Virus record (IMG/VR): IMGVR_UViG_2568526312_000003
From: a virus
Taxonomy: Duplodnaviria; Heunggongvirae; Uroviricota; Caudoviricetes
Strand: one strand, 5' to 3'
DNA length: 30,348 bases
In this document: piece after piece, positions 19,071 to 22,754 of the stretch
Position numbering within the stretch: the stretch's first letter is position 1
Layout of the letters: each line of letters opens with the position of its first letter
The notes under the pieces: model-generated
Databases searched by the model: none
What the model was told of the DNA's origin: nothing
Seen by the model: only the letters and a program-made list of their open reading frames with translations
Program-made: the position numbers and the translations under genes

Positions 19071-19835
19071 TTACCCGTTATCTCCTGTCGTTATTTTCTG
19101 TATGACATCACGATGCTTATTAATTTCCCGCAGCGCGGCGCATAAGCGCTCCCACTTCTGAACCTGACCTTTTGCCCGGCGCAGCTCGCGGTTAGCCACA
19201 TGCAGCGATGGTAAAATCAGACCATCCGGATGCTTTCTGATGAACGACGACTGTGACTGCACTGTGACCGCCACACTTTCAGTTTTAATTTCTTCCTGTG
19301 TTTCCGCTTCCCGGACTGGTAACGCAACACCTGCCGGCTGAGGAAAGGCTTTACCATCGGTTTCCGTTACCGATGCAGCTTTCGGCTCTGCCGGTAAATT
19401 ATCGCCCGGTATGCAGTAACGATATTTACCGTCCTGATTTACGCGAATCAGACGACCTTTGCTGACAGCCATCGCCAGTGATGAATTCGCCCGGCGGGAG
19501 GTAATCCCGAACATTAACGCCAGTTCGTCAGCCGACTGAGGACCATGCTGTTCAATCGCGTTAATCAGCATCTCTGCAGTGGTTTTTGGGGCCGCTTCAG
19601 TTGCCTCACTCGTCAGCCACCACATCGACCCCTTGTTATCAGCTTCGCCACGACGCTTCAGCTTCCAGAGTTCGGTAACAGCATCGTCACGGCTGATTTC
19701 AAGACGGGCTGCAATCTCGTGCGACGAGGCTTTTTTCAGTGCTTTCAGTGCGTCAAAAACGGTTTCCATTAAATTTTCCTCCCGGTAAAAATTACTTCTC
19801 AACTCAGACAAAACCGGCCGCCTTCCGGCGCTCAT
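19071..19835 (-). CDS. hypothetical phage protein (likely starts at internal METVFDAL, about 19769)
   Basis: 254-aa ORF; N-terminal HTH-like region ([26 protein letters not shown]). Confidence 0.5.
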
Positions 19836-20466
19836 ATTCCTGTTTCAGCAATTCAATTGGCGTTGGCCCTGGCGGGCGTTTGGGTGCTGCCAGTTGTCGC
19901 CGGACTGGCGGAACACTGAGGCCATTACCAACATGCTTTGCCCATTTCGTCAGCTGCCTTTCCACAAGCCGTTTTAACTCCCCTTCGGTCATCTGGCGCT
20001 CAATCCCCTTTGAACGCATCTCGAGGCAAATGTGGTACAGCACCGGCTGTGGCCACGGGTATTTATCACTCCCGTCGTACCGCCAGGATTCATTCCTCCA
20101 GCGACGGTACTCCTCCATCACGGCATCCACCGTCAGGCCAAATGGATTTGCCCCGCTCTCCGAAATCAACGCCACAAACTCAGCCAGATCCGGAGGCCAC
20201 GTTTCACCCGCCCGGCAGCGGTCCATGCACTGACGGCAGACCTGCCGGATTTGCTGTTCAGTCATCGCGCCAATCTGAGCAATCCAGAGCTTCGACGGCG
20301 CAGCCCCGTTCTTCTGGGTCCAGCGGTTCGAATACACCTCCCCCATAAGTTCCCACAGCTTCCAGGCCGTTTCCGTTGCTGATAAATCCGTTTTCACGTT
20401 CCCACTGTTCACGTGCTGCCCGAATTTCCTGAACTGCCCGTGATGCGGTGCCACCTGGTGCTGCAT
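19804..20466 (-). CDS. P: replication protein P-like (helicase loader); start uncertain (20265-20466)
   Basis: C-terminal half ([33 protein letters not shown]...[10 protein letters not shown]) aligns with recalled lambda P; overlaps the O ORF end in another frame. Confidence 0.65.
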
Positions 20467-21301
20467 GGCTTACCCCCTTGCTGACTGGTTTTACCTGTGC
20501 CCTGACGTGCTGCACGTGACGGGCAAATTTCTGCTCCCACTGAACCTGCGTGAAAACCTTCCCCTCCGCCATCCAGTAATCCCGGAATGCGGCAAGCTCA
20601 GCAGGTGTAAACTCAGGCTCAGGCAGAGCCATACCCCACACTGCTGCCCGCTGTCGAAAATCCGGCGACGGTTGCCAGACTCCAGTCATCGGAAATTTCC
20701 CGATCGGTTCGCTCAGGCCGTCCAGGTATTCAGGTTCGGCTGTCTGCAACGACGCGTCATTCAACTCACCGGTCGTAGCACTCTCGCGCATGCGCGCGTT
20801 ATGTGTGGGGTTTAATTCTTTATCTGTATCTGTATCTGTCGTGATTTGTCGTGACATATGCGTGACGCGTCGTGACTCATCGTGACAATCAGTGTTCTGC
20901 TTCCGCAGTCTTTCCCGCTCCCGCTGCGCTCTCTTGCGCTCTGCCGGGGATTTTGCGGTTTGCGAAACATTACCGTTATCCTCCTTCATCACCTGGCGTT
21001 TTTCCCATCCGGAAATAAGATCACCATCCAGAACTCGCCCCTGCATTGCATGCAAAATTGAATCAATCACGTCTTCCGTCACATCAAGCGCATTTGCTAA
21101 ATCTTCCGTCGTGACATCAATGTGACCACGTAGTGACACGCCGTGACATGTCGTGACATTTCGTGACGCACTCACCAGAAGGTGGATATACACCGCCATC
21201 ACTGTTGCGATTGGCTGTCCTGAGACCCTGGCAATGGTTCGCCATTTGGGATCATTTGGCATGTCATGCCACAATCTGAGCCAGGCATTAGCCATACTCA
21301 C
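20258..21301 (-). CDS. O: replication initiator O-like protein with embedded origin iterons
   Basis: 347 aa; N-terminus MANAWLRLWHDMPNDPKWRTIARVSG (O-like, memory); contains two arrays of YCGTGAC repeats at 10-bp spacing. Confidence 0.65.
   Translation of the reverse strand: MSMANAWLRLWHDMPNDPKWRTIARVSGQPIATVMAVYIHLLVSASRNVTTCHGVSLRGHIDVTTEDLANALDVTEDVIDSILHAMQGRVLDGDLISGWEKRQVMKEDNGNVSQTAKSPAERKRAQRERERLRKQNTDCHDESRRVTHMSRQITTDTDTDKELNPTHNARMRESATTGELNDASLQTAEPEYLDGLSEPIGKFPMTGVWQPSPDFRQRAAVWGMALPEPEFTPAELAAFRDYWMAEGKVFTQVQWEQKFARHVQHVRAQVKPVSKGVSHAAPGGTASRAVQEIRAAREQWERENGFISNGNGLEAVGTYGGGVFEPLDPEERGCAVEALDCSDWRDD
20821..21167. repeat. phage replication origin: (TATCTG)x3 plus five iterons (20838-20886) and a second array of six iterons (21109-21167)
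   Basis: tcgtgac/gtgac cores at 20840, 20850, 20861, 20870, 20881 and at 21109, 21121, 21131, 21141, 21151, 21161. Confidence 0.7.
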
Positions 21302-21363
21302 CTCATCTGATACCGAACTTTACCCTCGAACATCCGGAAGAAATCCGGCATGAATATTGTTGG

Positions 21364-21788
21364 TCAATGCACGACAACAGCATTACCAGGCTGACCACCA
21401 CTGTTAGTCAGGGTGCCCCAGGCGATCGCCGCTGCGACAAAATCATCCACATCTTTCACCAGCCGATCCCTCCGTTCGACGATCTCACGGTAATATTCAG
21501 AGCTGTGACTGCGCATACGGGCCACCAGCAGAGGCGGCATTGCCTTTTCGATCGCCGGTAACAGAGCCTGAATTTTTCAACAGCATCAGGGGTGTCTTTA
21601 TCCAGCCAACGGAAAATTTTCTGGGTATTACGAGCCAGGGCTTCCGGATGGCTGTCGTCGTACAGTTCCGGGAACGTCATCCCCAGCTCGAAATAAGTCC
21701 GGGCTATTTCAGCTGCAGGAACTTTCTCACCGTCCGGATAGGCCCAGGCATTGATCGCCATGCGGATGTGCTCATGTTTGATTTTCAT
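21364..21788 (-). pseudogene. YdaT-like (cII-position) protein, frameshifted at a T5/A5 run near 21574-21578
   Basis: ORF 21456..21788 starts MKIKHEHI; after ...AVEKF the plausible continuation (QALLPAIEKAMPPLLVARMRSHSSEYYREIVERRDRLVKDVDDFVAAAIAWG...) is in another frame. Confidence 0.5.
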
Positions 21789-22012
21789 GAATCCCCCTTT
21801 CCTTCGCCCTGAGTGGTATCCTTCTTTTTGTAAAGTTCTGGGTTCAAAGATAATTTCCCCTTGGAGTATGCAGCAGCTTCCGCAGCCCTCCCCTTCGGAA
21901 CTATTTCACCAGGACGCTTACGCCACATGTAAATAGCTTCGCGGGTTATCCCATAAAAATCGGCAACCCTCTGAACAGAACCAAAAAACTGGACAAGTTC
22001 ATCAACTCGCAT
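21785..22012 (-). CDS. cro: Cro-like repressor (YdaS/DicC-type HTH)
   Basis: 75 aa, divergent from the cI-like gene; HTH-like VQRVADFYGITREAIYMWRKR; SD aggagg. Confidence 0.7.
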   Translation of the reverse strand: MRVDELVQFFGSVQRVADFYGITREAIYMWRKRPGEIVPKGRAAEAAAYSKGKLSLNPELYKKKDTTQGEGKGDS

Positions 22013-22021
22013 TTTACCTCC

Positions 22022-22090
22022 TAAATCTAAGCATTTTTAGATTACAAGATAATTTTTTTTAGGTCAATGCAATCTAAAATAATTTATATT
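22022..22090. promoter_or_regulatory. OR operator region with PR (minus) and probable PRM (plus)
   Basis: Repeated ATCTAA/TTAGAT half-sites at 22024-22043 and 22070-22078; minus-strand PR TTGACC-17-TAATCT (-35 at 22062-22067, -10 at 22038-22043). Confidence 0.6.
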
Positions 22091-22106
22091 CAATTTGCAG
22101 GAGAAA

Positions 22107-22754
22107 ATGATGGAAAGCCTTGGCTTCAGGCTTAAGAGACTTAGAAAAGATAAGGGGCTGACCCAAGTAGAACTGGGTAAGCTTTCAGGCGTGACTGGGG
22201 TTACTATAGGGTACTGGGAGAAAGATCTAAACGAACCAGGTAGCAAAGCTCTAAGTAAGTTAGCCCAGGCATTAGGAACTACTGAGTCCTATCTCCTATA
22301 TGGAGTATCGTCTCCTGAATTATCTTTTGTACAAAGTACCTCAGGCACCAAGATCCCCTACCTTTCGTGGGGTGAGGCGATTTCTTTCCTAATCTTAAAA
22401 GGAGAGAAAACAATGGGAAATGTCGATAGAATCACCACATTCTTTGATGTCGAGGAAGGTGATTTTGCCGTTTCAATGCCTGATGACACAATGCATAACC
22501 CATCAGGATCACCGAGTATCCCAGTTGGTGCTACTGTGATCCTAAGGCCAGGAGAAAGTTATAAAAATGGCAGCATCGTCGCTGTAATAGTTCCGGATCC
22601 GCTTAAAAATGAACCATCTATGACTATAAAGAAATTAGTTATTGATGGGAAGCTTGTGTATTTAAGCCCTCTCAATCCACGCTATCAGTCATCCTTACTT
22701 ACACCAGAGTGTAAAATTGTTGCCGTAGCAAAAGGTGTACAGTTCAACTTATAA
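22107..22754 (+). CDS. cI: CI-like prophage repressor (HTH plus S24/LexA-like peptidase domain)
   Basis: N-terminal HTH (GLTQVELGKLSGVTGVTIGYWEK); C-terminal S24-like region (SMPDDTMHNP...GSIVAVIV...KKLVIDGKLVYLSPLNP). Confidence 0.8.
   Translation: MMESLGFRLKRLRKDKGLTQVELGKLSGVTGVTIGYWEKDLNEPGSKALSKLAQALGTTESYLLYGVSSPELSFVQSTSGTKIPYLSWGEAISFLILKGEKTMGNVDRITTFFDVEEGDFAVSMPDDTMHNPSGSPSIPVGATVILRPGESYKNGSIVAVIVPDPLKNEPSMTIKKLVIDGKLVYLSPLNPRYQSSLLTPECKIVAVAKGVQFNL

Follow-up and report, generated by a model that had tools for sequence, protein, structure and literature searches.

The window, by which we mean the whole 30,348-nt stretch of DNA analyzed, holds a gene for a replication initiator and a gene for a helicase loader, with cI, cro and a YdaT/cII-like gene upstream of the initiator. 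In its initiator-gene part it is 100% identical to many E. coli O157:H7 chromosomes. The genes at the locus are as follows.

19804-20265, minus strand: helicase loader gene (RefSeq coordinates), sharing 8 nt with the end of the initiator gene
20258-21295, minus strand: initiator gene, 1038 nt, coding for 345 aa from RefSeq's ATG; the open reading frame extends to a GTG at 21301
21364-21788, minus strand: YdaT/cII-like gene, between cro and the initiator gene
21785-22012, minus strand: cro, upstream of the initiator gene
22095-22754, plus strand: cI, upstream of the initiator gene

The initiator appears to be built of a winged-helix N-domain (aa ~3-100), a disordered basic and acidic linker (aa ~105-195) and a DnaT-like domain (aa 203-269). 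The last of these matches the Pfam model for the DnaT DNA-binding domain, PF17948 (1.4e-17, aa 203-269), and the PDB DnaT chains 6aep and 9zbt match the C-terminal part at 3e-20 to 5e-19. In the AlphaFold2 prediction for aa 1-175, whose pLDDT averages 73.9 and exceeds 90 over most of aa 20-100, there are helices at 4-16, 18-27 and 31-47, a loop at 48-64, helices at 65-72 and 76-86 and a beta hairpin at 87-98, followed by mostly disordered sequence. The predicted N-domain is closest to the DnaD N-terminal domain and to a RepA_N plasmid initiator; on this model it is a DnaD-like winged helix. The loader gene matches Pfam Phage_lambda_P (3.4e-16) and PHROG 109, "P-like helicase loader."

A preliminary description of this DNA, made from the sequence alone, had placed the repeats discussed below inside an O-like gene and proposed the O genes of 933W and phage 82 for comparison. 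The repeats are indeed inside the initiator gene. A Pfam scan at E<=0.01 finds the DnaT domain only, with no match to Phage_rep_O (PF04492), while PHROG matches are to "replication initiation protein" families, with weak matches to replisome organizers and DnaD-like loaders (E 1e-8 to 1e-4), and the NCBI name for relatives is "phage replisome organizer." Homology to lambda O was rejected on these grounds (no Phage_rep_O match, and PHROG matches to other initiator families), and O genes of the 933W and phage 82 kind are the wrong comparison for a protein predicted to join a DnaD-like winged helix to a DnaT-like domain.

Within and beside the repeats, the features of interest are these.

20785-20796, no strand: perfect 12-bp palindrome CGCGCATGCGCG, judged to be a chance occurrence outside the origin
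20800-20838, minus strand: AT-rich tract adjoining array 1 and including (TATCTG)x3, a candidate DNA-unwinding region
20839-20886, minus-strand feature: array 1, five units, of GTCACGA type on the coding strand, coding for aa ~139-155 in the disordered linker; on the plus strand the units read TCGTGAT (20839-20845), TCGTGAC (20849-20855), GCGTGAC (20860-20866), TCGTGAC (20870-20876) and TCGTGAC (20880-20886)
21078-21082: single inverted unit, GTCAC on the plus strand and GTGAC on the coding strand, inside Asp-Val-Thr at aa 73-75
21109-21167, minus-strand feature: array 2, six units, coding for aa 45-64, the end of helix 3 and the loop that follows; on the plus strand the units read TCGTGAC (21109-21115), ATGTGAC (21120-21126), TAGTGAC (21131-21137), CCGTGAC (21141-21147), TCGTGAC (21151-21157) and TCGTGAC (21161-21167)

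Units are spaced at 10, 11, 10 and 10 bp in array 1 and at 11, 11, 10, 10 and 10 bp in array 2, which confirms the preliminary description of five units and six, each spaced about 10 bp. Both arrays are real, their clustering and spacing being far beyond chance. Six of the eight exact copies of TCGTGAC in the window fall inside the two arrays, as do 10 of the 30 plus-strand copies of GTGAC, and the densest 60 bp holds six GTGAC, as against at most three in any of 300 shuffles. Array 2, which occupies nt 130-190 from the start of the gene, begins about 270 bp upstream of the start of array 1 within the gene, and 222 bp separate the two. Across homologs the distance between arrays is 192-319 nt (mode 229), with a clustering at a period of 10 that is partly built in, since an array that gains or loses a unit at its edge moves the distance by 10-11. 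The units of neither array show an internal dyad, and no duplication beyond the units themselves was found in the sequence around the two arrays. Model confidence is below pLDDT 50 in the segment coded by array 1 and is also lower in the loop coded by array 2.

The single inverted unit begins 33 nt downstream, in the direction of transcription, of the start of the last unit of array 2. It is present in most genes with GTCAC-type units, and the Val74 codon within it is GTG in all 21 diverged homologs compared; genes with the other motif classes described below have no reverse-strand copy of their own motif at this place. It might act as a half-site resembling an operator.

Only array 1 has an AT-rich flank. 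The AT fraction reaches a local maximum of 0.70-0.73 at 20800-20840, as against 0.43-0.57 around array 2, and the DNA between the arrays is coding sequence of 23-63% AT. Three TATCTG hexamers, also noted in the preliminary description, do stand at 20821-20838, where the coding strand reads CAGATA and codes for Thr-Asp repeats. Repeats of GATAAA/GATACA hexamers follow array 1 in all homologs examined, in every motif class, and the Asp codons of the tract are fixed as GAT (22 of 22 and 18 of 20 sequences). The hexamer tract is thus more than chance, since it is kept in homologs with these codons fixed. The palindrome reported alongside it exists, at 20785-20796 rather than two bases earlier, and was tried and rejected as a functional element: perfect 12-bp palindromes number eight in the window and 7.4 +/- 2.6 in shuffles, CGCGCATGCGCG is absent from 49 of 80 close relatives, and the homologous place in the prophage Rac-SA53 reads CGCGCGTGCGCG, which is not palindromic. 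A terminator-like match that the palindrome gives on the antisense strand was likewise set aside, as it lacks a proper T-run. There are no DnaA boxes near the arrays, their count across the window being at chance level, and there are no promoter-like sites within 20100-22200.

Repeats inside a coding sequence might be repeats of the protein. That explanation was rejected on two counts: from one unit to the next the reading frame shifts, through all three frames, so that GTCACG codes successively for Cys/Gly-His, Ser-Arg and Val-Thr, and the synonymous sites of the units are frozen. Codons were compared at conserved residues in 25 genes of the GTCAC class differing at more than 7% of nucleotides, with entropy normalized to the degeneracy of each residue. 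Normalized codon entropy is 0.10 under the unit cores (13 columns) and 0.81 at other conserved residues (64 columns; Mann-Whitney p=4e-8); outside the arrays it runs at 0.6-1.0, that is, with synonymous sites near saturation. In array 2 the frozen codons are Ala45 GCG (23/25), Ser46 TCA (23/25), Val49 GTC (24/24), Thr50 ACG (24/24), Gly59 GGT (25/25), His60 CAC (24/24), Val63 GTC (24/24) and Thr64 ACG (23/24), and in array 1 they are His CAC (22/22), Ser TCA (24/24) and Val GTC (23/23). The spacer codon for Arg58, which lies between two units, is free, with an entropy of 0.68, and the AAT codon of Asn48, which supplies the base preceding a unit, is frozen. As shown by this codon comparison, selection on both arrays acts on DNA and not on protein.

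Both arrays occur at the same two positions in 45 of the 56 gene copies examined (the window copy plus homologs). The coliphages Evi and Tritos (83% nucleotide identity, within a range of 67-84% across these four phages), Pseudomonas phita81A (67%) and Aeromonas pAEv1818 (71%) all have an array of 3-5 units adjoining TATCTT/TATCTG hexamer repeats and, about 230 nt closer to the start of the gene, a second array of four units. Scanning a single genome for each species added 52 further loci, about half of them with GTCAC units at both places, in Escherichia albertii, Shigella, Entomomonas, Aquitalea, Rahnella, Bordetella, Serratia, Pseudomonas, Gilvimarinus, Acidovorax and Chromobacterium, among others. 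That the second array is a chance similarity, with a single array conserved in homologs, is refuted by these four phages and by most of the 52 loci, which carry both. Of 5426 complete E. coli genomes, 1255 carry a member of the initiator family.

The arrays vary in length by whole units. Array 1 has 3-6 units across homologs, and array 2 has four in most of them, but six in the window copy, in the E. albertii copy and in each of the 80 close IMG/VR relatives (89-99% identity, used for unit counts only). The two extra units here amount to 21 bp and add seven residues, TCHGVSL, to the loop. One homolog, from Pseudomonas sp. JAI111 (L108), has an array-2 loop longer by about 22 residues (nt ~137-206 of its gene), the insertion being built of more GTCAC/GTGAC units, some in each orientation; array growth within a folded domain is here taken to an extreme. 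Array 2 is missing in seven homologs, where the loop reads AS.SEERG; one of these loci keeps three array 1 units, and two have TACTACG repeats together with a different C-terminal part. Since seven homologs do without it, array 2 is, on this comparison, dispensable in some lineages.

More distant homologs that lack GTCAC carry CGAACGC or GTAACGC instead, every 10 bp and at both places. Among the 56 gene copies, the two arrays are of the GTCAC(G) class in 28, of the (C)GAACGC class in 12 and of the (G)TAACG(C) class in five, and in none are the classes mixed. In a rough neighbor-joining tree of the N-domain, computed after the array-coded loop had been masked, the classes intermingle, with a parsimony minimum of 11 changes (losses counted), and GTAACG-class genes nest in both GTCACG and CGAACGC neighborhoods. 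The motif class would thus appear to have switched several times, each switch altering 6-10 units at two separate places; the number of independent events is uncertain, given a tree built from about 85 residues and a possible contribution from gene conversion. Gene conversion between the arrays could also account in part for their matching motifs. Through these switches the middle of the array 2-coded loop keeps only Arg-Gly (VTRGH, TERGRT, VKRGET), the spacer bases evidently having been chosen to preserve it, as judged from these alignments.

Taken together, the frozen synonymous sites and the joint change of motif suggest that both arrays are cis-acting DNA sites with one phage-encoded reader. 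A host reader is disfavored, since elements of different motif classes occur within one host genus, Pseudomonas. The reader of both arrays is most likely the initiator itself. The preliminary description had offered either two O-binding sites or a duplicated origin, and it is two binding sites, for the present initiator, that these two lines of evidence favor. Residues that discriminate the motif classes are confined, in the folded N-domain, to aa 48-50 and 60, which array 2 codes for, and otherwise lie in the basic linker at aa 110 and 117; none is in a recognition helix, the only class-specific positions being those of the array-coded loop and the linker. It is conceivable, though we regard it as doubtful, that the array 2-coded loop helps to determine which iteron the protein reads. 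If it did, the same nucleotides would be both a binding site and the code for the residues that recognize it, and mutations would shift site and reader together.

Comparison with relatives reveals a sharp mosaic junction at the edge of array 1. The ydaU gene of Rac-SA53 has 86-89% nucleotide identity to the window over 20258-20835, and for both Rac-SA53 and PPompW the similarity runs out at about 20835-20838, precisely at the boundary of the hexamer tract with array 1. What is shared is a module of the hexamer/AT-rich tract and the C-terminal DnaT-like half, up to the start of the P gene; upstream of it the Rac-SA53 ydaU and PPompW genes have a different N-domain, of DUF1376 type. Genes of the ydaU type have other repeats, GTTCAA-type, upstream of the same junction. 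Because the junction lies between iterons and AT tract, the N-domain with its iterons would form one module, and the AT tract with the C-domain another. A junction at this place is what would be expected if the N-domain made up a single exchangeable specificity module with its iterons, and lambdoid O genes show the same division.

The same N-domain is seen elsewhere fused to an HNH endonuclease domain (PF01844/PF14279; P0039, P0065, P0080, P0091 and P0117), and in two loci (L127 and L134) it is joined to another kind of C-terminal part, located after TACTACG repeats. These fusions suggest that a putative origin-binding module is reused with other partners.

We consider it probable that the locus is the replication origin of a lambdoid prophage with an initiator other than O, and that the two iteron arrays inside the initiator gene differ in role, array 1 being the core and array 2 an auxiliary. 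The winged-helix N-domain of the initiator would bind each unit, and a unit spacing of about one helical turn would align the bound proteins along the same face of the DNA. The origin core, where the duplex opens, would consist of array 1 (20839-20886) and the AT-rich GATA-hexamer tract (20800-20838); array 1 is taken as the start site because of its AT-rich flank alone. The DnaT-like C-terminal half would recruit the P-like loader, which in turn would bring the host DnaB helicase. Having no AT-rich flank and lying in the loop of the DNA-binding domain, array 2 is better read as an auxiliary initiator-binding array than as a duplicated origin. It would raise the local concentration of initiator and probably bridge to array 1 by looping the intervening DNA, so as to stabilize or regulate the initiation complex, and it may be expected to grow and shrink by whole units.

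Array 2 could instead be mainly regulatory and act outside the initiation complex, which we think rather unlikely. It might serve as a roadblock to transcription from pR, initiator bound in the 5' part of its own gene reducing both the amount of initiator made and the activation of the origin by transcription. Alternatively, its pairing by handcuffing, either to array 1 or to a sister copy, might limit initiation in the way the extra iteron sets of plasmids P1, F and RK2 do. Such a role would suit an array that has no AT-rich flank, that is placed 130-190 nt from the gene start, a suitable position for a roadblock, and that is lost in some lineages, as a non-essential control element might be. 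The conserved single inverted unit that follows array 2 also fits, inverted half-iterons being used as operators in iteron plasmids. However, there is no promoter-like site nearby, and the origin of a lytic phage has little obvious need of copy-number control. Control of this kind is in any case compatible with the auxiliary role preferred here, as both require the initiator to bind array 2.

That each array can start replication independently, as in the duplicated origin of the preliminary description, is very unlikely. Two arrays of one motif and similar size do invite the idea, and phage SPP1 has two origins bound by one protein (PMC6316719), but here the AT-rich tract is found at array 1 only, nothing beyond the units is repeated in the flanking sequence, and array 2 sits inside the well-conserved coding sequence of a folded domain. 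Equally hard to credit, if not slightly more so, is the reading in which the repeats are not protein-binding sites at all and are a by-product of protein constraint, of slippage-prone sequence or of some feature of the mRNA. The residues coded by the arrays are conserved, and array 2 has changed in length by whole units, as slippage would make it do. Protein constraint does not explain units in all three frames that yield no peptide repeat, nor synonymous positions frozen under the cores only, a result that already goes most of the way to refuting this reading. The two arrays also switch motif jointly, with nothing but Arg-Gly retained in the loop, and direct repeats form no RNA hairpins.

As for the copy in the window, its YdaT/cII-like gene is split into two open reading frames, with a run of T5 at 21573-21577 where strain PV15-279 has T6. 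The prophage of PV15-279 is 99.9% identical and its YdaT/cII-like gene, of 426 nt, is intact. Judged by this comparison, T5 is a 1-bp homopolymer deletion that is either a real frameshift or a sequencing error. Because the frameshifted gene lies upstream of the initiator gene, the origin may be idle in this strain. In PV15-279 (L138) the prophage lies beside tRNA-Ser and mtfA, its integrase is interrupted by an IS1203 element, and several nearby genes carry pseudogene annotations; this copy of the prophage is probably a defective one.

The origins of most lambdoid prophages that are not of lambda type are unmapped, including many in Shiga-toxin-producing E. coli, and the arrays supply a candidate origin for an initiator family that is widespread in E. 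coli and in phages of many Proteobacteria. They also present an unusually clear natural case of dual coding, in which putative protein-binding sites lie over the code for a folded domain and the loop follows the DNA motif. Codons within such arrays should not be treated as neutral in evolutionary analyses. The three motif classes, together with the lineages that lack array 2, make a ready set for studying how initiator specificity evolves and what a second array does, and the arrays may be used to predict replication incompatibility groups among co-resident prophages.

Papers on the replication regions of non-lambdoid Stx phages describe no iterons (PMC8044961, PMC8951638). In a literature search made largely without subscription journals, we found no description of origin, binding, unwinding or replication for this initiator family and none of iterons in the replication regions of Eru-type Stx phages; the same incomplete search found no second array lying over the coding sequence of a DNA-binding domain. 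The two-part iteron origin predicted here is, as far as that search shows, of a kind not yet described for this family.

The arrays have the marks of an iteron-type origin, namely at least three direct repeats, spaced at about one helical turn and conserved together with a cognate initiator. In layout the likeness to the ori of lambda, 933W and P27 is close. The predicted origin is inside the initiator gene, over the linker that joins an N-domain predicted to bind DNA to a C-domain predicted to bind the loader; iterons and then an AT-rich tract follow in the direction of transcription from pR; a gene for a P-type loader comes next; and the N-domain appears to travel with its iterons as one mosaic module. 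Stx phage origins have two additional iterons, required for plasmid replication, that lengthen O by 13 residues (PMC7466680), much as the extra units here add residues, seven in this case. The differences from lambda are that the initiator is not homologous to O, that the units are cores of about 7 bp every 10-11 bp where lambda iterons are 19 bp with an internal dyad, and that there are two arrays where lambda has one, the second being inside the coding sequence of the DNA-binding domain.

A second set of iterons modulates initiation, by looping or handcuffing, in P1 (incC/incA), F, RK2 oriV and phage P4 (ori/crr). These resemble the arrangement predicted here in having one initiator, core iterons at the origin and another set nearby, but their sets flank the rep gene or are non-coding, and their initiators belong to other families.

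Similar in the apparent kind of protein are gp38 of SPP1 (G38P, acting at oriL and oriR) and the lactococcal replisome organizers, which may share with the modeled initiator a DnaD-like or replisome-organizer N-domain, although sequence similarity is weak and the host range here is Gram-negative. SPP1 gp38 binds repeats inside its own gene and also a second, distant origin (PMC6316719). Repeats inside the gene that adjoin an AT-rich unwinding element, and one protein for two separate repeat regions (PMC6316719), are points of likeness in which binding on our side is a prediction. The two SPP1 regions are about 13 kb apart, each with its own AT-rich element, whereas the arrays described here share one gene and one AT-rich flank. 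Phage-inducible elements (PICI/SaPI) offer another phage-related case of two sets of short iterons: in PICI origins these flank an AT-rich region and are bound by the element's own initiator (PMC6092414), as we predict for the present arrays. There the sets flank the AT-rich melting region and are outside the initiator coding sequence, while here the AT-rich tract lies to one side of both arrays, which are separated by 222 bp of ordinary coding sequence.
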